A stretch of 64,000 bases of DNA from an uncultured Pseudomonadota bacterium. GTDB lineage: Bacteria > Babelota > Babeliae > Babelales > RVW-14. The number at the start of each line of letters is the position of its first letter. The first letter of the stretch is position 1. The notes under the pieces are model-generated. The model was given only the letters and a program-made list of their open reading frames with translations, searched no databases and had not been told where the DNA came from. The translations under genes were made by a program, and so were the position numbers. The stretch spans positions 757 to 64,756 of the forward strand of contig CAYUQI010000005.1 in the NCBI GenBank assembly GCA_964446935.1. Reading direction: 5' to 3'. This document shows positions 5,361 to 56,669 of this stretch, piece after piece.

Positions 5361-6905
5361 TTATATTCCAGGGAGCTCTTGATAACGAGCACAACAGGGT
5401 AATCCAACAGCTAAAAGCTTTGAGAGTGTTGCTGCAAGTTGTGGAATCCATACAAGCTTGTTGATTGTATGTGGTTTGAGTACTCCTGGTTGATATAAAG
5501 CGAGTGGGACATGGGTATCGTAATCATAAGGGGAGCGATGTGCGGTCCCATCAATATGTTTAGTAATAAAACAGTAGGGTTCTGGCATACAAATGAGGTC
5601 ACCGGAACGTGGAATGTAGAGCTGATTTTTGAAAAATATCTCAATATCGTTTGATCGGTAATGTTTTTTTGATAGTTCTTCCTTTGTCCATACGTTTTTA
5701 ATGCCTGGCTGGCTTAAAAGCAGATTCTTCAGGTCGTGTAAAATGTTCTTCCTTTGATCTGCTGGTATTGCTGCTGTATTCAAAAAGAACTGATTTGTTT
5801 TGAACGCTCGAACGATTTTTTCAATACCATATTTCTCGTGAATACATTTATTCATAGCTTTAATGAGTGGTTTGGATAGAATTCTTCGAGCCAGGGTAAA
5901 TCCTTGTTTTTCAAGATCCTCTGGTATAGGGGCAACGCCATGATCGGCGGTAAAGGCAAAGAGAGTGTTGTGTTTACCAGCTTTGCGATGGCAGAACCGT
6001 ATAAAATCACCAATTTGCGTATCCAACTTTAAAATCATTTCTTTCATGCGAGGATCATGCGGGCCGTATTCATGTCCAATCATATCTAAACTTGAAAGCG
6101 AAACCCAGAGTAGAAACAATCCATTACGGTGGGGTTTAAAATTAGCATTGATACATTGTTTTGCTAGATCAAGAAGCATCTGATTGGCCTGTGGGGTGCG
6201 CAAGAACAATAAACAATTTTTATCTTCATCCAACTCGTCATCGTCATTTTTCTGATACCGCTGATATTGTTTGTCAAGATCCATTGTCTTAATACCTGCA
6301 TTAAACTTTTGAACCCATAATGGAAGTTGATCAAAGTATCGTTTGCTTGATGTGAATGAGATAAGATCATTATCAAACCACAGTGCATGGCCAAGTTTAC
6401 CAGCCATTGCCATAGCAGCGCGTGCTTTGTGGGAAAGTGAGTAAACATTATGTGGCTGCTGTGGATTCGATGTTCGCATGATAACATCAGAAATAGTATC
6501 AACGAGTAATAGTTTGGTTGATTTGCCATCCAATGAATCATCGCCGAGGACGGCAGCCGAAGGGCTTGGGTCAGTACCGAATTTAGTTTTGCTTCCTTGT
6601 CGATCAATCCATCCATTGAGGATAACTCCGTGATCTTTGGCTACTGTGCCGGTACTCATTGTGGCGTGTCCAACGGCGGTCGTTGGTGATCCATGAGGAT
6701 GTCTGGCATTTGTATAAAAAACGCCTTTATGACAGAGCGTTTTTATGCCGTCTTTAAAGTGTGATTCTAGCCGTACAATATGATGATATGCACATTGATC
6801 AATAACAATGACAACAGCAAGAGATGGTGGATGTTTTTTGGATGCTGCATTAAGTACGGGAGTAAATAAGAGCAGTAGTAGTAACCATCGAATGCGAGGG
6901 ATCAT
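5361..6905 (-). CDS. secreted nucleotide pyrophosphatase/phosphodiesterase-like enzyme (alkaline phosphatase superfamily), paralogue B
   Basis: Start moved to the internal ATG at 6905 (MIPRIRWLLLLLLFTPVLNA signal peptide), which overlaps the upstream stop as ATGA. Motifs: VVIVIDQ, GSPTTAVGHATMSTG (nucleophile Thr region), LDMIGHEYGP, TADHG. Confidence 0.8.
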   Translation of the reverse strand: MIPRIRWLLLLLLFTPVLNAASKKHPPSLAVVIVIDQCAYHHIVRLESHFKDGIKTLCHKGVFYTNARHPHGSPTTAVGHATMSTGTVAKDHGVILNGWIDRQGSKTKFGTDPSPSAAVLGDDSLDGKSTKLLLVDTISDVIMRTSNPQQPHNVYSLSHKARAAMAMAGKLGHALWFDNDLISFTSSKRYFDQLPLWVQKFNAGIKTMDLDKQYQRYQKNDDDELDEDKNCLLFLRTPQANQMLLDLAKQCINANFKPHRNGLFLLWVSLSSLDMIGHEYGPHDPRMKEMILKLDTQIGDFIRFCHRKAGKHNTLFAFTADHGVAPIPEDLEKQGFTLARRILSKPLIKAMNKCIHEKYGIEKIVRAFKTNQFFLNTAAIPADQRKNILHDLKNLLLSQPGIKNVWTKEELSKKHYRSNDIEIFFKNQLYIPRSGDLICMPEPYCFITKHIDGTAHRSPYDYDTHVPLALYQPGVLKPHTINKLVWIPQLAATLSKLLAVGLPCCARYQELPGI

Positions 6906-8581
6906 AAAGTACCCTTGAGGCCTGGAAGGTCTTTGTAAATAGATGCGGATGGACGATTGATATTCAAAATAGTTGCCAAGGTGATTGGTAATTGGGCCGC
7001 CCATACCTTGTGTGTGACAACCATTTTGCCGAATCGTCCTTTTTGATAAAGGGCAATAGGAACGTGTGTGTCATAGTCGTAAGGACTTAAATGTGATGTG
7101 CCAGTTGGATAATTGGTAAGTAAACAGTACGGTTCAGGCATACAGATAAGGTCTCCGCTGCGGTTGTTATAGAGCTGATTTTTGTAGAAATTTTCAAGTT
7201 GATCATTTGCAAATGTTAAGTTGTGCAGTTCTTGTGTTGTCCAGACGCGTTTGATTCCTTTTTGTTTGAGTAAATAATTTTTAATGTCGGTGATGATAGC
7301 TTTGTAAACACTGGTATCGAGTGTTGCTATTGCTTCTTTATTAAATATAAAAAAAGTTGGCTCAAAAGCTTTGATAAATTCATCAACAGCGTAGTTTTTT
7401 TTGATCATGGTATTGATGTGTTCGATCAGTGGTTTGGCCATAATACGTTGTGCCATGGTAAAACCACGCTTATGCATAAGTTCTGGTATTGGACAAATAC
7501 CGTGATCAGCCGCTAGAACAAAAAGACAATTTTTTGCCCCAACGCGACGTTTAGCAAAACCCATGAGATCACTCATTTGTTTATCGATATGATAGAGTGT
7601 GTCAATGGCCTCCATAGAATCAGGGCCGAAGAAGTGTGTTACGAGGTCTAAATTACTAAAACTTACCCATAGTAACAATTTGTCTGATGCTTTGGTAAAA
7701 CTGTTGTTGATGCATACTTTGGCTAATTCAACCAATGTTTTACTTGATTGTGGTGTTTTTACAAACATTTCAAAAGGGGCTTTTGCTGTTTTATCAATAG
7801 GTAACGATGGTGAGGATATAAAACTGTATGAGTATCCTGCGTAATCGTAATTTTTTATATCTTGAAAACGATAGGCAGCATCGTGAAGAGGATATGCTGT
7901 TTTCCATGCGAACTGAGAGCGCTTGGCCATTGCGAGATCTTTATTGAATTCGACAAGCCATGAGGGTAATTGTTCAAAGTATTTTTTACTTGAAGTAAAG
8001 TTGCCTGATACTGTATCAAACCAAATGGCTTTGCCAAGACGTTGGGCACAGGCTATTGCAGGGTGGGCTTTGAGTGAAATTGAGAATGCCTTGTTGTGGG
8101 ATTTGGGCGAGCTTGCTAGAACAAATTGGTCTGATAGTCCATCAACTCGAGTGTTTTCACACGACTTGCCCATGATTTGGGGTGGCTGTTGATAAAAGAC
8201 TTCTGCTTGTTGGGATGGATCATCAACATAGTGAATTTTATTATATTTTTTGTCGAACCATTCATTGAGAACAGCCCCATGATCCTTTGGGAGTGTTCCT
8301 GTACTCAAAGCATGATGCCCTGGCGTTGTTTCTGGAATAGCATGTTGATGAAAGGCATTAGTGTAAAAAATTCCTTTATCAAGGAACTTTTTCAGTCCAT
8401 ACTGAAAATAGGGGCGCAGCTTGGGAATGTAATGATAGGCGAATTGATCGATAATACAGACGACGACAAGTTTGGGCTGACGATGTTTTGAATCTTTTGA
8501 CTGAAGTGATGGTACGTATAGGATGCTGCTTATATATGCAATACCTATAGCAGTCAATAATGACATGCGTTTTTTGATCAT
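6902..8581 (-). CDS. secreted nucleotide pyrophosphatase/phosphodiesterase-like enzyme (alkaline phosphatase superfamily), paralogue A
   Basis: 559 aa with a signal peptide. Motifs: VVCIIDQ, IPETTPGHHALSTG, LDLVTHFFGP, AADHG. The C-terminal SGDLICMPEPYC...SPYDYDTHVP is shared almost verbatim with paralogue B. Confidence 0.8.
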   Translation of the reverse strand: MIKKRMSLLTAIGIAYISSILYVPSLQSKDSKHRQPKLVVVCIIDQFAYHYIPKLRPYFQYGLKKFLDKGIFYTNAFHQHAIPETTPGHHALSTGTLPKDHGAVLNEWFDKKYNKIHYVDDPSQQAEVFYQQPPQIMGKSCENTRVDGLSDQFVLASSPKSHNKAFSISLKAHPAIACAQRLGKAIWFDTVSGNFTSSKKYFEQLPSWLVEFNKDLAMAKRSQFAWKTAYPLHDAAYRFQDIKNYDYAGYSYSFISSPSLPIDKTAKAPFEMFVKTPQSSKTLVELAKVCINNSFTKASDKLLLWVSFSNLDLVTHFFGPDSMEAIDTLYHIDKQMSDLMGFAKRRVGAKNCLFVLAADHGICPIPELMHKRGFTMAQRIMAKPLIEHINTMIKKNYAVDEFIKAFEPTFFIFNKEAIATLDTSVYKAIITDIKNYLLKQKGIKRVWTTQELHNLTFANDQLENFYKNQLYNNRSGDLICMPEPYCLLTNYPTGTSHLSPYDYDTHVPIALYQKGRFGKMVVTHKVWAAQLPITLATILNINRPSASIYKDLPGLKGTL

Positions 8582-10791: not shown

Positions 10792-12116
10792 TATGGGGCC
10801 TTTTTAACAATGAGATGAACAGGACATCCTAGTAAGTCGTAGTGTTTGCGTAAAATGTTTTCAATACACCCTTGTTCTGCATCTTCAAACCATTCAGGAA
10901 AGTTTACAGAAAGAGCAAAGGTTGGGATAGACGCTTTGATTGGTTTGATATGATCAACCTTGAGTTGCTTTGTGGTGTGATACAGCGGTTTGGTGAGTAA
11001 TTCTTTGATAACCAATTCATTGACGGTGGCCTCATCAAATTCGTAGTGACATCGTTGCCATACTGCATGAATTTCGTCGAAAATTTTACTAATATTTTTT
11101 TGGGTTAAGCAAGAAATGCGTACCTGGGGAACTTTTTTGAGAATGAACTGGTATTCTTTGATGCTTTGATCAAGTGTCATTTGTTTGTATTCATCAAGCA
11201 AATCGGTTTTATTAAAGATGACGACAATCATTTTTTGTTGTTCATAGGCATAAAAAAGTAATTTGAGCTCTTGATCTGCAATCTTTCCCTCGGATGCATC
11301 GATCATTATTAAAACAATATCAGCCTCTCTCACTGCTTGCATGGAGCTTTTAATCATGAGCTGTTCAAGATCTTCTTCAATTTTGCGTGATCGTCGTACC
11401 CCGGCGGTGTCGGTGATTTGAATAAGATCGTTGCAGCAGTAGGTTAGTTCAGAAATAGCTTCACGAGTGGTTCCGGCAATGCTTGAAACAATAGAGCGTT
11501 CATGTTGAATCAGGAGGTTCATGAGGGATGATTTACCAACGTTTGGTCTCCCAATGATGGTGACATTATAACTCGGCTTTTCTGGTTCGGCTTCTGTTGG
11601 CATAGGAATAGTACTTGCAATGGTTTCCAGCAGGGTGCTGATACCTGTTCCATGAATGCCGGAAATAGGAATAATGCTGGAAAAACCAAGTTTATAAAAA
11701 TCAGGCATGTTGTCTTCGATCGCGTTAATATTATCTGCTTTATTGACCAGAAGAACAACCGGCTTTTGTGTTTTGTGTATTACTTTGGCAACGCGTATAT
11801 CTTCATCAGTTAATCCATTTTTTCCATCGACAACAAAGAGAAACATGGCGGCTTGCGTGAGGAGGTCAAGTACCTTTTCCTGAACGCGTTGGCCAATTTC
11901 ATCCTTTTGTTTGTGAAATGAAATACCGCCGGTATCTACTAGAAGAAAGGATTTGTCTTTCCAAACAATTAATTCCTGAAGATAATCGCGGGTAACGCCC
12001 TCATATTCAAAGACAATACTACGTTTTTGTTCGGCAAGACGGTTGAACAATGTTGACTTGCCAACATTCATGCGGCCAACAAGAAGGACTTTTGGATACG
12101 AATAATGCTTATTCAT
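10791..12116 (-). CDS. der: ribosome-associated GTPase Der/EngA
   Basis: 441 aa with two tandem GTPase domains (GRMNVGKSTLFN...DTGG...NKAD and GRPNVGKSSLMN...DTAG...NKTD) plus a KH-like C-terminus. Confidence 0.95.
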   Translation of the reverse strand: MNKHYSYPKVLLVGRMNVGKSTLFNRLAEQKRSIVFEYEGVTRDYLQELIVWKDKSFLLVDTGGISFHKQKDEIGQRVQEKVLDLLTQAAMFLFVVDGKNGLTDEDIRVAKVIHKTQKPVVLLVNKADNINAIEDNMPDFYKLGFSSIIPISGIHGTGISTLLETIASTIPMPTEAEPEKPSYNVTIIGRPNVGKSSLMNLLIQHERSIVSSIAGTTREAISELTYCCNDLIQITDTAGVRRSRKIEEDLEQLMIKSSMQAVREADIVLIMIDASEGKIADQELKLLFYAYEQQKMIVVIFNKTDLLDEYKQMTLDQSIKEYQFILKKVPQVRISCLTQKNISKIFDEIHAVWQRCHYEFDEATVNELVIKELLTKPLYHTTKQLKVDHIKPIKASIPTFALSVNFPEWFEDAEQGCIENILRKHYDLLGCPVHLIVKKAP

Positions 12117-13855
12117 GATACACCCCGCTTTATTTTACCCGGAAAATAGCGTAGGAGCAAGCTTGCTTTTGGCCATTGGACCGAGTTTTTGATAATAAGG
12201 TAGTCGTTTTCAGCCCTTTGGGCACTTCGTTGAGGTTGGTGTGGTTGTTGTGTGGGAGTTGCCGATGTTGTAGTTTGTGCTTGTAGTTTGGGTTGTGGGG
12301 TGATTAGGACTCGCGGTGAAGGTGCATAGGCAAATCCGGTATACCCTTGAAAGAATTGGCAAAATGATGGAAACCAGAGATTTTTGGTTTCTGTTATTTT
12401 ATTTTTAAAGAAGGTGCTTTCGGTGTTGAGTTGGATGATGACCTGTTTACTTTCGTCCTCTTTCTTGATCAATGTTGCTTGTTTAAAGATTGAGCAAAGA
12501 ACAGGGTCAGGTATTTGAGTAATAGCATTGACGAAACAATCCCAATCAGAGGGGGGCTGGATAGGCTGCTCAGGCGCTGATGGTTGAGGTGAAGGCGTGG
12601 GTGCTTCATGGGGTGGAAGGGTTGCGGTTGCTACAGGTACAACTGGGGTGCTTGGCAAATGCTGAGGCTCAGGGATTGTCGCACGTGATGGTGTCTGTGT
12701 GATATCTTTACATGATTTGATGAGCTCATGAACATCAGCAATATCAACTTGCTGGCACAATTGTACAAGTATCATTTCTAGAAAAAGATGTTTTCTGCTT
12801 GTTTTCAAGAAAAGCTCTTCCTGGGACCACAGGAGAGTGAAGATGGCGTTGATACGGTTGAGAGAGCATCCTTGGGCAATAATGGTTAGTTGATCACGAT
12901 GTGCTTGAAAACCACCGGGGATAGTTTGGACACCGTATTTAATCCATACCAAAGCTCGGCAGAGGTGGACAAGCATGTCCCATAGCAGCTGTGGAGACCG
13001 TTGTTCAAAATTAATTGTTTGCAAGAGGTCAAGTAGTTTTGGTGCATTTTGCTCGAGAATACGCTGGAAGATGGTGAATAATTGTTGTGTGCTTATTTTA
13101 CCTAAAACGTCATGAATGGTTTGTTCCGTAATATGATCACTTGAAAAACGTACACGTTCAAGGAGGTTGATGGCATCGCGTACCGAGCCTTCAGTTTCAT
13201 CCAGAAGTACATCAAGTGCGGCTGGATCAATAATAACGCCTTCATTGGTACAAATAGTGGTAAGGTGATTTTTGAGCGTTTCATTGTCGATGGGGTTGAA
13301 TGTTAGCTGAAAACAACGAGAAAGTACTGTTGTTGGGAACTTATTACTTTCTGTGGTTGCTAGGATAAACATGACGGAGGCGGGTGGTTCTTCAAGTACC
13401 TTTAAGAAGGCATTAAAGGCTGCTTTACTGAGCATGTGAGCTTCATCAATCAAATATATCTTTTTGCGTCCTACCAAGGGCATGTAGCTTGAGGCATCAA
13501 TAATTTGGCGAACATTATCAACCCCGGTATGGGATGCTGCGTCAATTTCAATAAAATCTGGATGGTCTCCTTTGCTCATGGCTATGCATGAAGAGCATGT
13601 AAGGCAAGGCAACGAGATATTTGGATCTTTTTGGAATGTGTCGACATGGTGACAATTAACGGCAGCCGCAAATACACGCGCTGTTGTTGTTTTACCGCAT
13701 CCGCGTTGTCCTGCAAAGAGATATACAGGAAACAACTTGTTAAGGAATAAGCTGTTTTTAAGCATGCGAAGGGTGATTGGTTGACCAACAATCGTATCAA
13801 ATGATTGTGGTCGCCATTTGCGAGCAAGATTGAGATTTTGTGTTTGTGTTGTCAT
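12113..13855 (-). CDS. dnaX: DNA polymerase III subunit gamma/tau
   Basis: 580 aa. N-terminal AAA+ clamp-loader module (GQRGCGKTTTARVFA, Zn module CLTCSSC, DEAHML, SRC motif VLSRCFQ). A proline-rich linker follows. Confidence 0.9.
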   Translation of the reverse strand: MTTQTQNLNLARKWRPQSFDTIVGQPITLRMLKNSLFLNKLFPVYLFAGQRGCGKTTTARVFAAAVNCHHVDTFQKDPNISLPCLTCSSCIAMSKGDHPDFIEIDAASHTGVDNVRQIIDASSYMPLVGRKKIYLIDEAHMLSKAAFNAFLKVLEEPPASVMFILATTESNKFPTTVLSRCFQLTFNPIDNETLKNHLTTICTNEGVIIDPAALDVLLDETEGSVRDAINLLERVRFSSDHITEQTIHDVLGKISTQQLFTIFQRILEQNAPKLLDLLQTINFEQRSPQLLWDMLVHLCRALVWIKYGVQTIPGGFQAHRDQLTIIAQGCSLNRINAIFTLLWSQEELFLKTSRKHLFLEMILVQLCQQVDIADVHELIKSCKDITQTPSRATIPEPQHLPSTPVVPVATATLPPHEAPTPSPQPSAPEQPIQPPSDWDCFVNAITQIPDPVLCSIFKQATLIKKEDESKQVIIQLNTESTFFKNKITETKNLWFPSFCQFFQGYTGFAYAPSPRVLITPQPKLQAQTTTSATPTQQPHQPQRSAQRAENDYLIIKNSVQWPKASLLLRYFPGKIKRGVS

Positions 13856-13943: not shown

Positions 13944-14034
13944 AAAAAAGAGGGCACGGTACAGAGAAGTATTACCCCTGCTGCTTCCTTCCGGACCTGA
14001 CAGATTATGCAACACCTCAACTTACCATGCCCAA
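13944..14034 (-). ncRNA. ffs: signal recognition particle RNA (small 4.5S-type)
   Basis: The minus strand reads GGGCATGG...GTCAGGTCCGGAAGGAAGCAGC...CCGTGCCC followed by a T-run. The central block is the near-invariant SRP domain IV motif. The ends pair (GGGCATGG/CCGTGCCC) to close a single long hairpin. It lies directly upstream of dnaX. Boundaries are approximate. Confidence 0.8.
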
Positions 14035-14114
14035 TTTGTAAAGAACTTTGTTATGTCAAAATTTAAATTTACTGGCCTGCCATACGAAGCCACGAGCAAA
14101 GCGAGGGCGAAGTA

Positions 14115-14206
14115 TGGTGGAGAGAGAGGGATTCGAACCCTCGATGCCCCTTTCAGGACATACATGATTTCCAATCATGCGCTTTCGACCACTCAGCCAT
14201 CTCTCC
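14115..14206 (-). tRNA. tRNA-Ser (anticodon GGA), CCA encoded
   Basis: Minus strand: GGAGAGATGGCTGAGTGGTCGAAAGCGCATGATTGGAAATCATGTATGTCCTGAAAGGGGCATCGAGGGTTCGAATCCCTCTCTCTCCACCA. It has a 7-bp acceptor stem, an anticodon loop TTGGAAA, the long variable arm typical of class II tRNAs, and a GGTTCGAATCC T-loop. Confidence 0.92.
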
Positions 14207-14215
14207 TGACTGGCA

Positions 14216-15298
14216 TTATTCCTTTTTAGCTGTTGTTTTTTTCTCTGGCTGTTTAGCGGCGGCGGTAGGACGAGCAACTTTTTTTATTTCTTTATGCTCA
14301 GGTTCGGCTGCTTTTTTTGTTTCGACGTTAGCTGCCTTTTTGTGTTCTGGTTCAGCAACTTTTGGCGTTCTTGGTTTTACTTCAATTTTTTCAGTTTTTT
14401 CAACTTTAGTATGTTCAGTTTTTACGTGTTCAATTTTTGGTTTTTCAATCTTTTCATCATGATGTTTTGCTTCATGTGTTTCATGTTTTTCTGGCGCTTT
14501 AGTGGGCTGAACATGCGCTTTGCGTTCCATTTTTGCGTGTAGTTCTTTTGCTTCGGTGACTGCTTTTACCTGAGCCTTACGTGCTTCAAGTTCTGCGGCT
14601 CTTGTTTTTGCCAGAGTAGCTTCGTACGTGGAAACACCTTCTTTAATTTGTTCTGTTAAAAAATCAAAAATGAAGGTAATTGATTTTGGAGAATCGTCAT
14701 TTCCAGGAATAACGAATGTTACTCCTTCTGGATCAGCATTGGTGTCAACTAATGCAACAACGGGAATGCCTAGACGAGATGCTTCTTTAACAGCGGAACG
14801 TTCTTTGGTGACATCGACAATGATGATAGCGGCTGGTGGATAATCCAAGTCGATAATACCTCCAACATTTTTCTCCAAACGAGCAACCTCTTTTTGGATC
14901 ATACTAATTTCTTTTTTCTTATAATGAGTTGTTGATTTTTGAAGTACGTCACGCATATGCAGGAGACGTGTTACAGCTTTCTTTACTTGATCATAGTTAC
15001 TCAATGTTCCACCAACCCATCGGTGAACAACAAATGGCATATGAACAGTATTTGCTGTTTTCTGAATGATAGATTGTGCTGGCTTTTTTGTTCCCACTAG
15101 AAGAAACTTGCCACCAGTGCTGGCAACTTCTTTAAGGAATTTTCCAGCGCGTTCAAGTAAAAAAGCTGTTTTGGAAACATCAATAAGGTGGACGCGGTTT
15201 TTGGCGCCCCAAATGAAGGGTCTCATTTTAGGTGACCAACGTGATGTTTTGTGACCAAAATGAACACCTGCTTCAAGCATTTTCTTTAGATCGATCAT
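14216..15298 (-). CDS. rpsB: 30S ribosomal protein S2 with a long Lys/Glu-rich C-terminal extension
   Basis: 360 aa. The N-terminal part is canonical S2 (LLEAGVHFGHKTSRWSPKMRPFIWG ... IPVVALVDTNADPEGV). The last roughly 130 aa are low-complexity KE-rich with repeated AEPEHK units. Confidence 0.93.
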   Translation of the reverse strand: MIDLKKMLEAGVHFGHKTSRWSPKMRPFIWGAKNRVHLIDVSKTAFLLERAGKFLKEVASTGGKFLLVGTKKPAQSIIQKTANTVHMPFVVHRWVGGTLSNYDQVKKAVTRLLHMRDVLQKSTTHYKKKEISMIQKEVARLEKNVGGIIDLDYPPAAIIIVDVTKERSAVKEASRLGIPVVALVDTNADPEGVTFVIPGNDDSPKSITFIFDFLTEQIKEGVSTYEATLAKTRAAELEARKAQVKAVTEAKELHAKMERKAHVQPTKAPEKHETHEAKHHDEKIEKPKIEHVKTEHTKVEKTEKIEVKPRTPKVAEPEHKKAANVETKKAAEPEHKEIKKVARPTAAAKQPEKKTTAKKE

Positions 15299-15469: not shown

Positions 15470-16858
15470 TTATTTTTGTCCAATAACTTTATTAGACTCA
15501 ATGGTTGTTGTGTATTTCCTGCCAGTTAACATGGCCAAAAACGCCCATGCACAAGCGACGACGATAGAAATACCTGACCCTGCAACTAAGCATATATAAG
15601 CCGAACTAAAGTATGTTGTAAGTGCATTGAAGGTTGAGCCAGTTGTTTTTGAAGCTGTTCTACCAAATGATTCAATCCATGCTTTTGATTTAAATCTGAT
15701 ATCTTTTGTTGTTGGGATAAAAAGAATCTCTCTCAATGGGTGATTGATGCCGTAATTAAGCGCTCGAAGCACAACCATAACGATGAAGATAATTATGAGT
15801 TTAGGATAAAATACGGGCAATAAAGCCATTGCAAGAGTAATAATAGGCATCAGTATAAGGCTTGCTTGAACTCCAAAATGTTTGAGGAGTGTTGATGTGC
15901 CAAAAAGTGCAAAGAAAAAACTCAAAAATTGAAATGCACACGTGTATAAAAGCATAAATGAACTCATTGCGGTAACTTGATTGTGTGCTTCTATGGACAT
16001 GAGAACATGCATTTGATAATCAAAAATAATATTAATTACCTCATAACTGAATACGAGCCCGAAGATACCGAGCACGTAGGGCTGAGCAAGCATTTGTTTA
16101 AGACCTTCAAAAAGAGATGTCCTTTCTTTGGATGCTTCTTGTTTGATATCGGCTGTGTATGCAGCTTCATAGCCTCGCAAATGATCAGCGGGTATCTTTT
16201 TGATGATAATGCTGATGCAGCACATCGCCAAGATTAAAAGAAGTGCTGTGCTGCCTGTCAATAGTGGAATAATGATGTGTCCAGGGTATGCTATTTTTTC
16301 AATTAGAATCCAGCTTATAAATGTTGTTGATATGCCGCCGATGCGAGATCCTGCAACAATAAAGCCATAGGATTTTTTGGCAATGCCTGGGGTTGTTATT
16401 GAATTAATAAAGCTCCAAAAAGTTCCAACAATGAGTGCTTGAAAGAGGTCCATACAAATTTCAAATGCCCATCCAGTAATGCGTGATGAACTTGTTTGAG
16501 TATTAGGAATGCCGTAGACAGGGTGAGCGAACAAAAATGCAAATATGAGTGTGGCGCATGCATAAAAACCAAGAAAGGAGAAAACTACATATTGCCGTTT
16601 AAATGTATCAGTGATTTTCGAATGAAGCATCATAGCTGGAATGGTAAAAAAGACACTTAAAATTTTAGAGATCGGTTCATATTCTCTGCCAACAAACCCA
16701 AGAAATATTGATGTTTTAAATGATCGAAGAATTGAGTATGAGCCTATAATGAAGAAAAAGGTTGCTGCTGATAAAATAAGCTTAAGTCTTTCGCTGCTGT
16801 CTATTTGCAAATGTTTTTCAAGAAAAGAAAAAAATTTCGTTGTTAATCGAGTACTCAT
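15470..16858 (-). CDS. ATP/ADP translocase-type nucleotide transporter (NTT/Tlc family), paralogue 1
   Basis: 462 aa polytopic membrane protein. FWSFINSITTPGIAKKSYGFIVAGSRIGG resembles the Tlc FWxFANxIT...AKRFY block. FIPTTKDIRFKSKAWIESFGRTASK resembles the YIPLDxDxRxKGKA block. Confidence 0.8.
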   Translation of the reverse strand: MSTRLTTKFFSFLEKHLQIDSSERLKLILSAATFFFIIGSYSILRSFKTSIFLGFVGREYEPISKILSVFFTIPAMMLHSKITDTFKRQYVVFSFLGFYACATLIFAFLFAHPVYGIPNTQTSSSRITGWAFEICMDLFQALIVGTFWSFINSITTPGIAKKSYGFIVAGSRIGGISTTFISWILIEKIAYPGHIIIPLLTGSTALLLILAMCCISIIIKKIPADHLRGYEAAYTADIKQEASKERTSLFEGLKQMLAQPYVLGIFGLVFSYEVINIIFDYQMHVLMSIEAHNQVTAMSSFMLLYTCAFQFLSFFFALFGTSTLLKHFGVQASLILMPIITLAMALLPVFYPKLIIIFIVMVVLRALNYGINHPLREILFIPTTKDIRFKSKAWIESFGRTASKTTGSTFNALTTYFSSAYICLVAGSGISIVVACAWAFLAMLTGRKYTTTIESNKVIGQK

Positions 16859-16891
16859 AGCTTCCTCATCTTAGTGATAATCTATGTAAGA

Positions 16892-18298
16892 TTAAAATTC
16901 TTCTTGTCCGTTAACTTGCCCAATTACCCGTTTGTTATCAATTGCATCTTGAAGTGTTTTGCCGAGAAAATACACAATAATGAGCCACAAAAAGTTAAGA
17001 GTTAGTCCTAACCCAAGGCTTGATATAAGGGCAAAGGCAGGTGTCGCGCCCTTAATGGATACATTGAAAAGTGATCCAAAACTTTTTGCGATACGCGATC
17101 CAAATGCATCGGTCCACGTTTTAGCTTTATATTTTATGTCTTTTGTTGTTGGGATATATAAAACTTCTCTGGTTGGATGATTAAAAGCATAATTAATTGA
17201 GCGCAAAGCAACAAGAACAGCAAAGAATATTCCTGCTGAAGGAATTATATAGGTTATTATAAGGAGGATCATGCAAAGAAGTGGAAAAATAAACAAGGAA
17301 AGTCGAATGCCAATAACACGCAAAAGAGGCGTTGTTCCAAATAAAGAAATACCAAGACCAATTAGGTTATAGAGAAAATAATAAAATGCGTAATATGCGG
17401 TCATAGCGCCGACGGATGGTGTTGTTGCATCTGCGTGAAGTGCTACCCACCAATCAAAAATAACAACCATGATTTCATAAAAGGCAACTAAGGAAAAGAT
17501 GCCAAGAACATAAGGGTTTCGAATCATGATAAAAAGCCCATCAAATGAGCTTTTGAATGAATTAATAAACCCCATTGAAGCTCTTTTTTTATGTTTTTCG
17601 AGTTGGTATGCTGCTTCGTAACCATGCATAAAATCATCAGAGACGTTTGTTATGAGCATATGGATAGAATATGCAGATGCAATTAACATACAGCTTCCTA
17701 TTGCTAAGGAACCTGGTAATAGCATTAATTGTGATTGCACATTTGTGTTTATTAGTATGAGATAAAGCGTTCCTGCTGAAAGGATTCCACCTATTTTTGA
17801 TCCTGCTGCAAAAAAACCATAGTAATTTTTTGCATCCTTAGGATTGTTGATGGAGTCTGCAAATGACCAGAAGACGGTGGCAAAAAAGGCATCAAAGCTT
17901 TCCATGAAAAAATAAAAGGCCCACCCAAGGAGTCGGCCTGAATTTACTTCTGTATTGGCAAGTCCATATACTGGATGCGTAAAGAGAAATGCAAAAATGA
18001 GACCCCCTATAGCATGAAAAAGCATAAAACAATATAAAAGGTGATGTCTTCGAAGCCAGTCAACAAGTTTTGAGTACAAAAGAATTAGCGGAATGATAAA
18101 AAATAAAGAATAAAGTTTTGCATTGGGAACTTGGTAAGCTCCAACCATTTTTGAAAAAATAGAAACTTTGAGTGGACGCCAAATAACAAGGCAACAGGAC
18201 ATGAGAAGAAAGGTTAATGAAAGAAAAAATACCTTGCGCTTAAACTCTGGTTTAATTCCCCACAAATCTTGAAACGTCAGTTTAAGCCGGTCTAGCAT
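16892..18298 (-). CDS. ATP/ADP translocase-type nucleotide transporter (NTT/Tlc family), paralogue 2
   Basis: 468 aa with the same blocks (FWSFADSINNPKDAKNYYGFFAAGSKIGG; LYIPTTKDIKYKAKTWTDAFGSRIAK). It aligns with paralogue 1 along its whole length. Confidence 0.8.
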   Translation of the reverse strand: MLDRLKLTFQDLWGIKPEFKRKVFFLSLTFLLMSCCLVIWRPLKVSIFSKMVGAYQVPNAKLYSLFFIIPLILLYSKLVDWLRRHHLLYCFMLFHAIGGLIFAFLFTHPVYGLANTEVNSGRLLGWAFYFFMESFDAFFATVFWSFADSINNPKDAKNYYGFFAAGSKIGGILSAGTLYLILINTNVQSQLMLLPGSLAIGSCMLIASAYSIHMLITNVSDDFMHGYEAAYQLEKHKKRASMGFINSFKSSFDGLFIMIRNPYVLGIFSLVAFYEIMVVIFDWWVALHADATTPSVGAMTAYYAFYYFLYNLIGLGISLFGTTPLLRVIGIRLSLFIFPLLCMILLIITYIIPSAGIFFAVLVALRSINYAFNHPTREVLYIPTTKDIKYKAKTWTDAFGSRIAKSFGSLFNVSIKGATPAFALISSLGLGLTLNFLWLIIVYFLGKTLQDAIDNKRVIGQVNGQEEF

Positions 18299-18600
18299 TG
18301 ATACCCCTTGTCCTACGTTTTGCTCAGTTTGTTACGAGAGACCCCCATATGTGTATTGACATGTTTGTTGTTGCGATCCCCTAACTTCAAAAATCATTTT
18401 GAAGCCTTTCAAAGTATAAAAGGAGCTACCAAAAAGTCAATTTTCAATCGATTAACGATGTGTTTGTTCGATCCCAAAGGGTTTTTTCGAGGTTCTTGCC
18501 TTGTTGAAAGTTTTCAAGTAGGACTATACTTTTTAAAAAAAAGTTGATATTATCATTATAAAGAAATCTAAGTATTTTCTATCATGAGTAAAAGAAGAAT

Positions 18601-21018
18601 ATGGAAGAACTTATAAAATTAGAAAAAACTCAAATGTTGCCTGTTTTGCCGCTTAAAAACATTATTGCTTTGCCCAAAAGCATCATTCCTGTTGTGGTTG
18701 GTCGAGCAATCTCAATTAATGCTGTTGATTTTGCAGTTCAGGCAAACAAAGAAATTTTTGTGACCGCTCAGAAATCAATTGATGTTGAAACCCCAACGCC
18801 TAATGATATTTATCATTATGGGACACGTGCATTAATTTTGCAAGTTGCTCGTATGCCCAATGGAACCCTTAAAATTCTTGTTGAGGGTATTTGCCGAGCG
18901 CATATCACCGAGGTGCGGCAAACGGAAGGCTTTATTGGCGTTGTTACCCAAGATCTGATTCCAGTTCCTCTTGAACATACGTCAGAAAATCAGGCGTTAT
19001 GGCGTAATCTTTTTGATTTATTCAAAGAATATGCGCAGTTAAGTGAAAAAATTTCTAGCGATGTAATGAGCCTTTTTAGAGGGATTGACGATATTGATTA
19101 TTTAGCTGATACAATCGCAGTGCAAATGCATTTAAACCTTGAGGAACGACAAAAGGTTTTGGAGACTATTGACCTGCGAGAACGAGCCTTAATGCTGTGT
19201 GTTTTGTTGCAAAAAGAGATTGAGATTTTAAAAGCCGAACGCAGTATTCGTAAGCGTGTTCAAAGTCAAGTCGAAAAGAACCAAAAAGATTATTATTTAA
19301 CAGAGCAAATGCGAGCCATTCAACGAGAGCTTGGACGTGATGATTTTCAGCAAGAGATTGCTGATTTGCGTAAAAAAGCTAAAAAATTAAAGCTGTCACC
19401 AGATGTTCTTGAAAAGGTTGAGGCTGAATTACGTCGTTTAGAGCAGATGCAGCCAACATCTCCTGAGGCTACGGTAAGTAGGAATTATGTTGATTGGATT
19501 TTGTCAGTTCCTTGGCATGCTCTTTCTCAAGATACCGTAAGCATGGAAGAGGCTGAAAAAATCCTCAATTCTTCGCATGCTGGGATGAAAAAAGCTAAAG
19601 AACGTATCATTGAATTTTTGGCGACGAAAAAATTTGCTAAAGATAATCTCAAACGATCTCCCATTATTTGTCTTGTTGGTCCTCCCGGTGTAGGCAAAAC
19701 GTCACTTGGCCAGTCGATTGCTCAAGCACTCGGTCGTCCATTGGTACGAATTTCATTGGGCGGTGTGCGTGATGAAGCAGAAATACGTGGACATCGTAGA
19801 ACATACATTGGAGCAATGCCTGGTAAAATCATTCAAGCCATGAAAAAAGTTAAGGTAACCAACCCTGTTATACTTTTGGATGAAGTTGATAAAATGTCGA
19901 CGGATTTCCGTGGTGATCCAGCTTCTGCACTTCTTGAAGTGCTTGACCCTGAACAGAACAAAGCATTCGTTGATCACTTTCTCGAGGTTGATTACGATTT
20001 ATCAAAAATTATGTTTATTACGACGGCCAATGTCATGGATAACATTCCGTATCCATTGCTTGACCGCATGGAATTAATCTTTTTATCTGGTTATACCGAG
20101 CAGGAAAAAGTTGAAATAGCACAAAGATTTTTAATGCCTAAATTACTCAAAGAACATGATTTGCAGGTTGACCAAATTGATATTCCTGAGTCGGTGTTGA
20201 GAAAAATTATTGATGAATTTACTAAGGAAGCTGGTGTACGACAACTTGAACGCGTATTAGCTAAGCTTTTGCGTAAGAGCATTCTAAAGCTTTTGAAAGA
20301 TAAAGATCGCAAAGAAAAAGTGTGTATAACATTTGAGCATCTGGATGAGTGGCTTGGGGTTCCTCCCTATCGAAGAGATGATCGCACCTTTGAACAAGCA
20401 AACGGGGTTGCTACTGGGTTAGCGTGGACTGAAGTAGGTGGTGACGTGCTCGATGTTGAAGTAACGGTGATGCGCGGCAAGGGAACGCTTACCATTACTG
20501 GTCAACTTGGCGATGTTATGCAAGAGTCGGCACAGGCAGCCATGAGCTACATTCGTTCTCGTGCCAAAGATTTTGGGCTAAAAGATAATTTTTATGCTGA
20601 CATAGACGTGCACATTCATCTTCCTGAAGGTGCTATTCCTAAGGATGGACCATCTGCTGGTATTACTATGGCTGTTGCTTTGACATCAGCATTAACCCAT
20701 GTGGCTATTCGACGTGATGTTGCTATGACGGGTGAAGTCACCTTGCGCGGACGAGTTCTTGCTATTGGTGGTTTGAAAGAGAAGTTATTAGCGGCAACAC
20801 GTTTTGGTATCAATAAGGTTATTGTTCCTAGGAGCAATGCTAAAGACATTAAAGAATTTGAATATGAGCTCGATTCATCGTTGAAGATTATCTATGTTGA
20901 TCATATGGATGAAGTGCTCAAAGAGGCTTTAGTCGCCGAACCAAAACTTATTGAACCAGCTAAAGGCAAGAAAAAGAAAGCAACTGGAAAGCGCGCTAAA
21001 AAACGCAAACCTGCTTAA
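18601..21018 (+). CDS. lon: ATP-dependent Lon protease
   Basis: 805 aa with an N-terminal LON substrate-binding domain, AAA+ Walker A GPPGVGKTS, Walker B ILLDEVDK, and protease domain PKDGPSAGITM (catalytic Ser). A lysine-rich C-terminal tail follows. Confidence 0.96.
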   Translation: MEELIKLEKTQMLPVLPLKNIIALPKSIIPVVVGRAISINAVDFAVQANKEIFVTAQKSIDVETPTPNDIYHYGTRALILQVARMPNGTLKILVEGICRAHITEVRQTEGFIGVVTQDLIPVPLEHTSENQALWRNLFDLFKEYAQLSEKISSDVMSLFRGIDDIDYLADTIAVQMHLNLEERQKVLETIDLRERALMLCVLLQKEIEILKAERSIRKRVQSQVEKNQKDYYLTEQMRAIQRELGRDDFQQEIADLRKKAKKLKLSPDVLEKVEAELRRLEQMQPTSPEATVSRNYVDWILSVPWHALSQDTVSMEEAEKILNSSHAGMKKAKERIIEFLATKKFAKDNLKRSPIICLVGPPGVGKTSLGQSIAQALGRPLVRISLGGVRDEAEIRGHRRTYIGAMPGKIIQAMKKVKVTNPVILLDEVDKMSTDFRGDPASALLEVLDPEQNKAFVDHFLEVDYDLSKIMFITTANVMDNIPYPLLDRMELIFLSGYTEQEKVEIAQRFLMPKLLKEHDLQVDQIDIPESVLRKIIDEFTKEAGVRQLERVLAKLLRKSILKLLKDKDRKEKVCITFEHLDEWLGVPPYRRDDRTFEQANGVATGLAWTEVGGDVLDVEVTVMRGKGTLTITGQLGDVMQESAQAAMSYIRSRAKDFGLKDNFYADIDVHIHLPEGAIPKDGPSAGITMAVALTSALTHVAIRRDVAMTGEVTLRGRVLAIGGLKEKLLAATRFGINKVIVPRSNAKDIKEFEYELDSSLKIIYVDHMDEVLKEALVAEPKLIEPAKGKKKKATGKRAKKRKPA

Positions 21019-44578: not shown

Positions 44579-45139
44579 ATGGAACCACAACGGCAGCAAA
44601 GCCAAAAAGAGACAAGTCTGGCATGGTTTAAGCTTGCTGATCTTATAGCGCGAGGAGAACGAGAAAAAGCGCTCAATGTCTTTCGACTATTATCGCATTC
44701 ATTGCCTGATCGAGCCTATGTTTTGCAGCTAGAAGGCGATATCTTATGGCATCTTGATGATGACAAAAATTCGTATGAGAAATATAAACAAGCGGCTTTT
44801 TTGTATCAGAAGGAAAAACGTTGGATTGATGCCATTGCTATTTATGAGCATTTGTTGACGCAGAATCCTGATTCACCAGATATTGTCGGATCTTTGCTTG
44901 TATTCTATGCCGTGATAGATTGGCAGGAAAAGTTCCAAGAACGTTTTGGTCGTCTGATGAAACTTTTTAAAAAGGGTGATGCTGGAGAGTTACAGGTAGA
45001 AAAGATCATCCAAGATGTTATCGATATTGTTGGTATTACTGGTAATAAGTGTGAAAAAAGGTGGCTTTTTGACTGGTTGTCAGAAGTTGTTGATGACCTT
45101 CCTGAAGCAATTGCAACGCGGTTGCGGGGGCTTTTGTAA
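44579..45139 (+). CDS. hypothetical protein, helical-repeat (TPR-like?)
   Basis: 186 aa, all-helical in appearance (KALNVFRLLSHSLPDRAYVLQLEGDILWHL...KYKQAAFLYQKEKRWIDAIAIYEHLL). No signal peptide and no family recognised. Confidence 0.45.
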   Translation: MEPQRQQSQKETSLAWFKLADLIARGEREKALNVFRLLSHSLPDRAYVLQLEGDILWHLDDDKNSYEKYKQAAFLYQKEKRWIDAIAIYEHLLTQNPDSPDIVGSLLVFYAVIDWQEKFQERFGRLMKLFKKGDAGELQVEKIIQDVIDIVGITGNKCEKRWLFDWLSEVVDDLPEAIATRLRGLL

Positions 45140-45474
45140 ACGTGATCAAAGTGTGATACAGTAAAACCATCTTTCATCTACCAAAAGTCTCTATAATATA
45201 TCTTTAGTATTCTCTGTGTATCCCCGCACCCAGTCCCCCGTCACAATATGTGTTCCATTTACAAAAATATGACTAGTTTGTGTTATTTTGTATAGCCAAT
45301 TAGAAATACTTTCAATGTGTAATAAAATATTAACAAATCGTATAAAAGATTAATGTTTTGCCATTTGATATTTTTTTATTCAGGTGCTAGGCTTTAAATC
45401 GTTGATCATTGTGTAATGGTCATTCAGAAAAAATGTAGGTTATATAACACGTTATAAAAACGGGGGTTATTATC

Positions 45475-46098
45475 ATGGTTACGAATAAAAAAACACTTGT
45501 TCTTTCTTTGGCAATTGCTTGTGCTGGTGTTATGTCATGTGCTCAAGCACAACAACCGCAACTACCGACGCCGCTTCAAACAGCACAGCAAAAAATAGCT
45601 GCTGCTAATGGACAACCTGTCCAGTTGTTAGCTACTGAAGCTGCTGCCTTAGCAGCCCATGCTGCCCAAGAAGCACAAAATCAACCAACGAAAATAGGTA
45701 AGGTTTTTATTGGGCTTGCCAATGGTGTTGATAAATACATTTTTAAAAATGCTGTGAAACTTGTTACTAAGACAGGAGAAGGCATTGTGTATGTTTGTCG
45801 TGATATTAAAGCAAATCCTGGCACGGTTGTTGCCGGTGTTTCAACAGCAATAGCATTAACTTTTTGGTTCCTTCCTTCAATTACCAATCTAGTTGGTGTG
45901 GCAACCCCTACCGTGGCAGGCTATCAGACTCAATGCATATCTAATGATCGCATGGTTGCTCTTGTTCAAAATGGAGCCGTGGTTGCACTTACGCCAGTGT
46001 GTTCGACGGCATGGTGGGTAATTAGAAAAATATGGCAAAAAATGACAGCCCCTGAGGCTCCGGTTGCTCAACAACCAGTCGCTCAAAACAATCAATAA
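45475..46098 (+). CDS. hypothetical lipoprotein/membrane protein (ORFan operon gene 1)
   Basis: 207 aa. The signal peptide has a lipobox-like VMSC. An Ala/Gln-rich segment follows, then two hydrophobic segments (VVAGVSTAIALTFWFLPSI; VVALTPVCSTAWWVI). Confidence 0.5.
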   Translation: MVTNKKTLVLSLAIACAGVMSCAQAQQPQLPTPLQTAQQKIAAANGQPVQLLATEAAALAAHAAQEAQNQPTKIGKVFIGLANGVDKYIFKNAVKLVTKTGEGIVYVCRDIKANPGTVVAGVSTAIALTFWFLPSITNLVGVATPTVAGYQTQCISNDRMVALVQNGAVVALTPVCSTAWWVIRKIWQKMTAPEAPVAQQPVAQNNQ

Positions 46099-46164
46099 AC
46101 AATCTCCATTATTATAGAGATATTGTTTTTTGTATGCCTATCGACAGGGAAATGTGAGGTTATC

Positions 46165-47367
46165 GTGAATGTGTTAAAAAGATACAGCGTATTGGTTTGT
46201 ATTGCTAGTTGTTTGCTGTTTGTTAATGGTGCCATCGCTATGGATGATGCACCAGATGCCCAAATGGATAATGCAACAGCTGGTAGACGCGTACGCAAAT
46301 ATGGTAAGCGTAAGCGTGATGAATCAAAAGCCGGTAAAATAACAAAGCAATTCAAACAAAACGACGGAAGTTCTCAAAGGCATACATTTGAACAACCCAT
46401 TCCGGCAACGCCTATTGTTCAACAACAGGAACAACTACCTAGTTGGCAAAGTACTCTTAATCCATTCAATTATGCTCCATTAAAATATATTAAGCGATTT
46501 ATTAAAGGTAAAAGAAAATTGGTACCAGAGCCTAATGCATCTACAACTACAACAAATGGAGCCAATGTATTATCGAGTACAACACATTCATCTTATGTAT
46601 CTGCTCCACTGCCACCGCCTCTTCACGTAGAAACGCCAACAGCTTCTTCAAGTTCATCATCTTCTGCACAAACGATTACAGTGAGTGGTAATGACTACAA
46701 TGTTGATACGTATTTTGAGAAGAAAGACGATGGATGGCATTACAAGCAATATCTAAATGGTGCCAAGGCAGGAAGCCTTGTTCGTAAAGATGCGATTTTG
46801 AGACAGCTGCAGACATTGGGACAATTGAAACAACAGCTGGTACAAACGCTACCCCCGGCTGCTATTTCTGTCGATGAAGTCAAAGCATTGTCTGGCAGGA
46901 TTGATCAAATGGGAGCAACTATTCAGCAATTGCAAATGCAACAAAATCAACAACAATATGAACAATTTAGATCACGCATAAGTTTCTTGGCTCTTAATCT
47001 TGCGAGTATCGGTATGAGTTTATTTTTGGGCGGATGGACAACTTCAGTTATATGTAACATTATTGCGTTTGCATGTGATTACGTGCTTGGTTGTCAATGG
47101 ATTATGTCGCATTTTGGCGAAAAAACTCAAAAATTATTTCTTCGTATCAGAACAATTGTTTCTACTATTTCTGCCGGATTTGCTGTGTATAACTTTGTAA
47201 ATATGCACATAGAACTTAAGCAAACGATAACAGAGCTTAAACAAGAGTTGGCAAGAATAATGCCCGCTAGCGTTAACCAGGATACGCTTTCCTGGTGGCA
47301 AAAACCGTTGTATTCTGCTGTACGATTATTTGAGACAATTGGTTGCTCAGTAGCAAATTGTCATTAA
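46165..47367 (+). CDS. hypothetical secreted/membrane protein with basic KRKR patch, poly-Ser and Q-rich coiled coil (ORFan operon gene 2)
   Basis: Start probably GTG 46165 (GAGG upstream; the ORF-track start is 46123). Signal peptide LKRYSVLVCIASCLLFVNGAIA. Other elements: GRRVRKYGKRKRDE, SSSSSS, QQLQMQQNQQQYEQF, and three C-terminal hydrophobic helices. Confidence 0.5.
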   Translation: MNVLKRYSVLVCIASCLLFVNGAIAMDDAPDAQMDNATAGRRVRKYGKRKRDESKAGKITKQFKQNDGSSQRHTFEQPIPATPIVQQQEQLPSWQSTLNPFNYAPLKYIKRFIKGKRKLVPEPNASTTTTNGANVLSSTTHSSYVSAPLPPPLHVETPTASSSSSSSAQTITVSGNDYNVDTYFEKKDDGWHYKQYLNGAKAGSLVRKDAILRQLQTLGQLKQQLVQTLPPAAISVDEVKALSGRIDQMGATIQQLQMQQNQQQYEQFRSRISFLALNLASIGMSLFLGGWTTSVICNIIAFACDYVLGCQWIMSHFGEKTQKLFLRIRTIVSTISAGFAVYNFVNMHIELKQTITELKQELARIMPASVNQDTLSWWQKPLYSAVRLFETIGCSVANCH

Positions 47368-47377
47368 TGGAGGCTCT

Positions 47378-48274
47378 ATGGTTATGAGTAATAAAATAAA
47401 AATAGTTTTGAGTACTATTGTTTTTTTCATGGTGAGTGGGATTCCTTTTTTGCGTGGGCAGCAAGATAAGAGAATATTTGATGAGGGCTCTCCTGAAAAA
47501 CAGTTACTCATAAAGACTGATGGCACTACATCTTTTTATAATCGTGTACATGCTTGTTTTAATAATACGTCGCAATTGCCTTCGAATGTGTTGGATACGT
47601 CTATTAAGGTGATTCTGAATGATGCTTTATGGCAAACACTTGCAGCTAATTGTACCAATAAACGTATCTCTGCTTTCAAAGTAAATTTACCCCCACTGCC
47701 AACCGGATTTGTTGATCAACCATCACAAAATAGCAAGATACCGGTAACAGGAGACTACAAAAAGATAGTGCTTTATTATATTACCGCTGCCTATATGTTG
47801 GTTGCCAAAAATCTTTCGCATACTCATCAAACATGGAAGACGTTTTTCTCCCAGACTCAAAATTGTACAGCCTATGTAAATGTATTACGTGGGGCGGTGC
47901 AGGCAGTTGCATATTGGCAGAATGTTTTTGACGATGGATACTGGGTGCAGGTTGCTCAGAGTCTTGCAAATGTTTGTAGCCAGGCTAAACCACTCCCTGC
48001 TGATGCAATTATTGATGGGGACTTTGATACTTTGTATGTTCACGAACTTAACAAAACGGTCAACCAATTGAAGTTTTGGGCTAAGGTTAGTGTGGCAACA
48101 TTATTTATAGTTCATGGACTGACTGCATTAGCTGAACATTGTGTTCCTCATTATCATAGTAATTTATCATCGAATCTTTCGGCGGCATTTGTTGCCGATG
48201 TTACAGTAGCGTTAATGATTGCTGGTACTGCAAAAACAGTAAGTTTTATTACAAGAAAATTGTTTGGTCGTTAA
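47378..48274 (+). CDS. hypothetical secreted protein with C-terminal two-helix hydrophobic hairpin (ORFan operon gene 3)
   Basis: 298 aa. GGAGG lies just upstream, followed by a signal peptide. The C-terminus has VSVATLFIVHGLTALA and AAFVADVTVALMIAGTA separated by about 20 aa. Confidence 0.5.
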   Translation: MVMSNKIKIVLSTIVFFMVSGIPFLRGQQDKRIFDEGSPEKQLLIKTDGTTSFYNRVHACFNNTSQLPSNVLDTSIKVILNDALWQTLAANCTNKRISAFKVNLPPLPTGFVDQPSQNSKIPVTGDYKKIVLYYITAAYMLVAKNLSHTHQTWKTFFSQTQNCTAYVNVLRGAVQAVAYWQNVFDDGYWVQVAQSLANVCSQAKPLPADAIIDGDFDTLYVHELNKTVNQLKFWAKVSVATLFIVHGLTALAEHCVPHYHSNLSSNLSAAFVADVTVALMIAGTAKTVSFITRKLFGR

Positions 48275-48313
48275 TTAGTTAAAACCCATATTTTTTTATT
48301 AGGGAGGTTTCTC

Positions 48314-49189: not shown

Positions 49190-49257
49190 TTTTAAATAGT
49201 TATAAGGAATAGGGGGAAGCTTTTTTTAGCTTCCTCCTATCTACATAAAGAAGAACA

Positions 49258-49977: not shown

Positions 49978-49983
49978 TAAACA

Positions 49984-55947: not shown

Positions 55948-55962
55948 GCCTTATCCCTTTGG

Positions 55963-56646: not shown

Positions 56647-56669
56647 TATACCAGTCCTATCTGCATGTA

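Follow-up and report, generated by a model that had tools for sequence, protein, structure and literature searches.

A tandem NTT gene pair between lon and rpsB

The window analysed here is a stretch of 64,000 nucleotides (64 kb) of contig CAYUQI010000005.1 from assembly GCA_964446935.1. Two adjacent genes on its minus strand, here called NTT-A and NTT-B, encode membrane carriers of the NTT/TLC family (Pfam PF03219, the "AAA" ATP:ADP antiporter family), and the source of the window is a bacterium of the Dependentiae (TM6/Babeliales). Each gene is an open reading frame (ORF) with an ATG start, and both lie exactly where a sequence-only reading of the window had placed them as tandem paralogues of 462 and 468 residues. 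The locus comprises the following features.

14216 to 15298, minus strand: rpsB, encoding ribosomal protein S2 (Ribosomal_S2 domain), 171 bp downstream of NTT-B
15470 to 16858, minus strand: NTT-B, a 462-residue paralogue of NTT-A, adjoining rpsB
16859 to 16891, minus strand: spacer of 33 bp between NTT-A and NTT-B, with a Shine-Dalgarno-like GAGGAAG directly upstream of the NTT-B start codon
16892 to 18298, minus strand: NTT-A, a 468-residue carrier of the NTT/TLC family with an MFS-type 12-helix fold, adjoining lon
18413 to 18440, minus strand: sigma-70-like promoter match (TTGACT, 16 nt, TATACT; 10 of 12 consensus positions)
18601 to 21018, plus strand: lon protease gene, divergent to the NTT pair, with Lon domains (found on the identical contig L001)

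Both rpsB and lon serve as synteny anchors for the pair; lon has no part in transporter function. A search with the NTT-B protein located four identical short contigs.

The two proteins are 36% identical over 450 residues, end to end (BLASTP, E 6e-94), and are, judged by this comparison, true but old paralogues, as clearly diverged as the sequence-only reading had described them. The two Tlc/NTT motif blocks quoted in that reading occur in both proteins: FWSFADSINNPKDAKNYYGF and YIPTTKDIKYKAK in NTT-A, FWSFINSITTPGIAKKSYGF and FIPTTKDIRFKSK in NTT-B. A hidden Markov model of A and B homologues, run against the six-frame translation, found no third NTT copy in the window. The GC content of the NTT genes (0.37-0.39) is the same as that of their flanks, and recent horizontal transfer of the pair was rejected on this match in composition, which gives no sign of it.

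The NCBI model of NTT-A (P0001, 436 residues) begins at an internal methionine, 32 codons late, and lacks part of helix 1. Homologues keep an N-terminal segment, LW.IK.E.K.KV, upstream of the P0001 start, and the 468-residue start is favoured because the longer N terminus is conserved among them.

No terminator-like site was found between NTT-A and NTT-B, and the two genes are probably co-transcribed as one operon. The best minus-strand promoter-like match lies about 115 nt upstream of the NTT-A start, within the 302-bp divergent spacer shared with lon. Promoter-like sites in the region number 11, against 15 expected from shuffles, and the one upstream of NTT-A may be regarded as a weak candidate, put forward on its match to the consensus.

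Membership of the NTT/TLC family

Both proteins belong to the NTT/TLC family, and their resemblance to NTTs far exceeds what chance would give. NTT-A passes the Pfam TLC model (62.5 bits; gathering score 21), while NTT-B alone gives no Pfam match at E<=1 and no PDB match by phmmer. The profile check proposed in the sequence-only reading thus succeeds directly for NTT-A and fails for NTT-B taken singly, although 39 of 43 B-type orthologues match TLC individually. A second model, TIGR00769 of NCBIfam (NTP/NDP exchange), detects NTT-A at E 6.6e-15 and NTT-B at 3.9e-16. Searched against the PDB, a joint profile of A and B matches solved NTT structures (E 5e-22 and 3e-17) and nothing beyond them; a profile built from B sequences has 9j3j and 9j3n as its sole matches (E 8e-17 and 1.4e-15). 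Homology to NTT-A, the TLC matches of orthologues, the B-only profile and the predicted fold together make the membership of NTT-B secure.

Three other identities were considered. A generic MFS protein, the outcome that the sequence-only reading had set against its own proposal, was rejected, as profile and Foldseek searches point to TLC/NTT for both proteins. Mitochondrial-type ADP/ATP carriers (PF00153) consist of three repeats of about 100 residues with six helices; neither protein has a PF00153 match, and both models have an MFS fold built of 12 long helices. Fusions of the NTT-HEAT and the NTT-HEAT-cNBD kinds were also rejected, since both proteins are single-domain and end directly past helix 12, and Pfam finds no HEAT or cNMP domain.

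Predicted fold and functional residues

AlphaFold2 modelled both proteins with good mean confidence (pLDDT 89.6 for NTT-A, 87.6 for NTT-B). By our reading of the secondary-structure strings of these models, from which the helix count is taken, each has 12 long helices arranged 6+6 around a central loop; the first two helices of NTT-A read as a single long helix, 17-81. In Foldseek, ranks 1-5 for both models are NTT structures (9j3o, 9j3j, 9j3m, 9j3l and 9j3n), with E values of 2.5e-11 to 7e-10 (3e-11 to 7e-10 for NTT-A) and TM-scores of 0.63-0.77, the highest value being reached by NTT-B. Generic MFS proteins start at 1.7e-7 or weaker, about 1000-fold behind.

These structures represent Chlamydia pneumoniae NTT1 (CpNTT1; 9j3n, 9j3o) and Arabidopsis AtNTT1 (9j3j, 9j3l, 9j3m), which are the best structural matches and the sole sequence-profile matches in the PDB. 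They have the 12-helix MFS fold and the charged residues in common with NTT-A and NTT-B, and the two motif blocks align to their FWGFAN..EAK.FY and YIPLD...K.KGK. The Dependentiae proteins differ in shorter loops, in two Glu-to-Asp replacements, and in being 30-40 residues shorter, which bears out the earlier remark that they fall short of classical Tlc proteins in length.

Residues known from mutagenesis (AtNTT1 K155, E245, E385 and K527; Rickettsia Tlc1 R46) were mapped in a 358-sequence MAFFT alignment, with the PDB sequences rebuilt from HMMER alignments. Adding 84 to the 9j3j chain numbering puts the four AtNTT1 residues on K, E, E and K, which serves as an internal check of the numbering. 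In the same order, with R46 last, the equivalents are K61, E133, D282, K405 and R41 in NTT-A, and K65, D137, D280, K404 and R45 in NTT-B. Charge is retained at all five positions, with Glu replaced by Asp at two (E385 in both proteins, E245 in NTT-B), and all five hardly vary among 111 A-type and 118 B-type orthologues. The lysine equivalent to K527 is invariant in B-type and present in 98% of A-type orthologues; experiments on AtNTT1 K527 (PamNTT1 K446) show interaction with ATP's gamma-phosphate or with free phosphate (Pi) (PMC2606016).

Beyond these residues, 25 positions are identical across A-type proteins, B-type proteins and both solved translocators. A further 12 positions are fixed differently between the A and B types, and six of the 12 fall at residues 283-311, beside the conserved Asp. 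Such type-specific positions would be compatible with different specificities of the two carriers.

A place outside the canonical clade

The canonical clade, consisting of Rickettsia Tlc1-5, Chlamydia Npt1/2, plastid NTT1/2 and microsporidian NTTs, is modelled by TIGR00769. Against a cutoff of 387.2 bits, NTT-A scores 55 and NTT-B 59, with CpNTT1 (814 bits) and AtNTT1 (792 bits) as positive controls. Because these scores lie far below the cutoff, the pair is placed outside the clade to which nearly all characterised NTTs belong; by this criterion of sequence, NTT-A and NTT-B are not canonical NTTs. The term "ATP/ADP-translocase-type" used in the sequence-only reading therefore holds for the NTT/TLC family and is too specific as a label.

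The relatives are numerous. An exhaustive phmmer search of 1.84 billion cluster representatives returned 3112 clusters at E<=1e-3; of these, 944 reached <=1e-10 and 222 reached <=1e-30. Look-ups of the clusters yielded few names, and all sampled bacterial clade members that carry a name are Dependentiae/TM6, Babeliales or Vermiphilus. The clade also holds many further Dependentiae paralogue groups of 430-450 residues. In a neighbour-joining (NJ) tree, with two canonical sequences taken from PDB alignments as outgroup, long proteins (476-765 residues) form one cluster amid the Dependentiae sequences.

The one identified member of this long-protein cluster is a 689-residue protein of the diatom Stephanopyxis turris (P0323), whose 120 best relatives (including P0407-P0525) carry only diatom names. 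At about 30% identity and 178 bits, the diatom isoforms are far nearer to NTT-A than canonical NTTs are, and P0323 likewise scores low on TIGR00769 (63 bits). They differ in being eukaryotic and longer (620-720 residues), with N-terminal extensions of about 150 residues. Their lengths suit the range of PtNTT3 and TpNTT3-4 better than the 547-residue PtNTT5, although length is a hint only. To our knowledge, the diatom NTT3/4 isoforms are uncharacterised. That the 620-720-residue diatom set stands nearer to Dependentiae NTTs than to canonical plastid NTTs hints at common origin or transfer.

Non-canonical NTTs as such are not new. Several such clades with diatom and bacterial members were described by Major et al. 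in 2017, in whose taxon table Dependentiae are absent (PMC5381601). Two characterised proteins likewise lie outside the canonical clade, namely the Protochlamydia NAD+/ADP exchanger PamNTT4 and the diatom purine (d)NTP exchanger PtNTT5 (PMC5381601); both were compared with the pair by description only.

Conservation of the locus, and the source organism

Orthologues of the pair occur in hundreds of proteins from metagenome-assembled genomes named Dependentiae, TM6 or Babeliales, with A-type proteins 58-75% and B-type proteins 47-68% identical to those of the window. One genome per GTDB species was scanned, and from the 206 related stretches detected 79 loci were kept. All informative titles among the 79 are Dependentiae, TM6, Babeliales or Vermiphilus; titles reading "Pseudomonadota" or "Campylobacterota" are probably binning labels. 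The nearest relatives of NTT-A in the genome collection (L007 and L008; 71-72% identity) bear the label "candidate division TM6 bacterium UASB124".

None of the 79 loci contradicts an arrangement in which a divergent lon is followed by one or more NTT genes and these by rpsB. The complete lon-NTT-rpsB order is present in 57, of which 48 have exactly two NTT genes; the loci outside these 57 are cut by contig or locus ends. Wherever the sequence extends far enough, lon flanks the NTT genes (70 loci) and rpsB follows them (64 loci). Among the nearer half of the loci, an A-type gene is clearly followed by a B-type gene. For the more distant half (L053-L084, for example L070, L071 and L074, and including Vermiphilus pyriformis and strain Noda2021), the lon-rpsB slot holds 2-4 NTT genes, none of them clearly assignable to either type, and these numbers suggest repeated local duplication within the slot. 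An apparent A-B fusion ORF of 908 residues (L037, 2263-4989) is not real and arises where a stretch of N separating the two genes in that record is read as X.

In an NJ analysis, bootstrap support is 100% for the monophyly of the A type and 100% for that of the B type. The distant rpsB-proximal genes join A and B in one clade (98%), and the distant lon-proximal genes lie outside it. The tree was built with simple distances and is coarse, so that it is indicative only; as such, its grouping suggests that the slot is ancient and that the A/B duplication is older than the radiation of the window's lineage.

This distribution bears on lifestyle. The sequence-only reading took the family to be essentially restricted to intracellular bacteria, plastids and microsporidia, a view that no longer holds for the whole of PF03219, since NTT genes occur in many free-living bacteria (Major et al. 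2017, PMC5381601). As a lifestyle clue the pair nevertheless holds at the level of its own clade, and host dependence is still soundly inferred because every named bacterial member is Dependentiae/TM6, a phylum inferred to be host-dependent (Yeoh et al. 2016, PMC4776705).

According to the same study (PMC4776705), TM6 genomes lack nucleotide synthesis and encode several NTTs each. The ATP/ADP translocases it describes come from the same phylum and the same gene family as the pair, present as several paralogues in a genome, repeatedly duplicated and substituted at key residues, and UASB124 is the name of one of the lineages it analyses. The study contains no functional test, and the text consulted describes neither the lon-NTT-NTT-rpsB synteny nor the distance of these proteins from the canonical NTT model.

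Proposed function and alternatives

The reading favoured here, to which we give a probability of roughly 0.75, is that the probably co-transcribed pair imports host nucleotides, with at least one of the two proteins exchanging host ATP for ADP and phosphate and the other handling a different nucleotide set or working in a different mode. Each carrier would be a 12-helix membrane protein of MFS fold, with a single central site facing outward and inward by turns. The phosphate chain of the nucleotide would be bound by conserved basic residues, among them the lysine whose contact in classical NTTs is the ATP gamma-phosphate or free phosphate; two conserved acidic residues are also retained in NTT-A and NTT-B. 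Through one carrier, host ATP would enter and bacterial ADP and phosphate would leave (energy parasitism), and the other would provide net or hetero-exchange import of NTPs. Exchange of ATP for ADP and phosphate by at least one of the proteins is probable because the lysine for gamma-phosphate or phosphate is conserved, and different substrate ranges for the two, as the sequence-only reading had suggested, are plausible.

A number of points weigh against this reading. Identity to the solved translocators is just 16-21%, both proteins score far below the TIGR00769 cutoff, and the best TIGR00769 E value among 100 diverse clade members (relatives of NTT-A) is 6.5e-31. We found no biochemically tested member of the clade in the literature, nor any tested NTT of Dependentiae. 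More generally, the substrate and mode of an NTT are not predictable from sequence, and diatom NTT1, which stands near the plant antiporters, is a proton symporter (PMC6995639). Outside the canonical clade, PamNTT4 carries NAD+ and Simkania NTT4 showed no nucleotide transport in assays (PMC5381601). Finally, the window, the only part of the genome seen here, encodes GAPDH, UMP kinase and a type II fatty-acid synthesis cluster.

The strongest alternative is that both proteins serve solely as importers for the nucleotide pool, whether as proton-coupled NTP symporters, as broad (d)NTP exchangers or as a PamNTT4-like NAD+/ADP exchanger, with ATP/ADP+Pi exchange left to other NTT paralogues of the genome. 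The position of the pair outside the canonical clade is in keeping with this; the further Dependentiae paralogue groups of 430-450 residues could include an ATP/ADP exchanger, and the characterised non-canonical NTTs carry NAD+ (PamNTT4, PMC5381601) or purine (d)NTPs (PtNTT5, PMC6995639). We nevertheless consider it unlikely. The lysine that selects ATP and phosphate in ATP/ADP antiporters is kept throughout the B type and in nearly all of the A type, and of the NTT loci recovered in the phylum that of the pair is conserved most widely, as a core energy function would predict.

Very unlikely, in our estimation, is that these are MFS-fold carriers that keep the NTT scaffold and now move a non-nucleotide solute, or that they are inactive. 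The low identity to proven NTTs would allow it, the general MFS_1 model is also matched by 21 of the 43 B-type orthologues, and Simkania NTT4 offers a precedent. Set against this are the conserved five mutagenesis residues and the 25 positions shared with both solved translocators, the failure of the profiles to match any other PDB family, and strong purifying selection across the phylum, which excludes decay (A orthologues 58-75% identical). That the genes are of a "free-living" kind, uninformative on host dependence, is hardly credible: PF03219 is found in many free-living bacteria, commonly in fusion with HEAT or cNMP-binding domains (PMC5381601), but both proteins (462 and 468 residues) are single-domain and carry neither, and their named bacterial relatives are all Dependentiae.

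Other features of the window

Elsewhere on the minus strand, two adjacent paralogous ORFs of 547 and 559 residues (5361-7004 and 6902-8581) match Pfam Phosphodiest (E 1e-33 and 4e-28), the family of type I phosphodiesterases and nucleotide pyrophosphatases (ENPP-like). The listed ORFs overlap by about 100 bp, and the real start of the 5361-7004 gene is therefore probably later. If secreted or surface-exposed, the encoded proteins could process host nucleotides and so take part in nucleotide scavenging.

A minus-strand ORF of 580 residues at 12113-13855, read by eye from the sequence, resembles the DnaX clamp-loader subunit (GQRGCGKTT Walker A); its C-terminal half contains a long low-complexity insert rich in Pro, Gln and Thr. 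Between dnaX and rpsB, also on the minus strand, lie a bacterial small signal recognition particle (SRP) RNA (13945-14036; Rfam RF00169, 50.9 bits) and tRNA-Ser(GGA) (14115-14206); because these RNAs occupy the stretch, several ORFs listed there are spurious. Ribosomal protein S2 (14216-15298, minus strand) has 360 residues and ends in a Lys/Glu/His-rich tail of about 110 residues, whose length varies among relatives (296 residues in total in L005, 313 in L037).

In bacteria, rpsB usually precedes tsf. In the window tsf, pyrH (UMP kinase) and frr stand together at 55363-57551, with rpsB 40 kb off beside the NTT pair, and the related Dependentiae loci likewise have an NTT gene upstream of rpsB. 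Seven consecutive ORFs of 186-414 residues at 44579-51069, adjoining dnaE (51149-54610), have no Pfam match at E<=1e-5.

Implications for Dependentiae and the NTT family

The pair is a correct identification of a feature already expected for the phylum. Multiple, repeatedly duplicated NTTs of TM6 bacteria, those of the UASB124 lineage among them, were published in 2016 as evidence of parasitism (PMC4776705). Since import of nucleotides from the host is already the published view of the phylum, nothing conceptually new is added at that level; what this analysis adds is how far the pair lies from the canonical model, that the lon-NTT-NTT-rpsB synteny is conserved, and the diatom relatives.

Taken further, these observations allow a tentative proposal, which we hold to be possible and rather less than probable: that the pair represents a distinct NTT subfamily, so far without biochemistry, comprising hundreds of clusters at 50% identity (with named bacterial members all Dependentiae), occupying an ancient phylum-wide lon-NTT-NTT-rpsB locus, and constituting the bacterial source or sister of the diatom isoforms. 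If this were true, substrate ranges or transport modes new to the family would be possible, and a Dependentiae-like bacterium would be implicated in the transfer of nucleotide carriers from bacteria to diatoms.

For the organism itself, the pair confirms a host-dependent Dependentiae origin of the window and marks the genes most likely to supply it with host nucleotides. For the family, the finding should be modestly useful in choosing NTTs for biochemistry or as nucleotide-import tools such as PtNTT2: the pair lies far outside the well-studied clade, occupies the same chromosomal slot in the Dependentiae recovered, and has uncharacterised diatom isoforms as its nearest relatives beyond that phylum.

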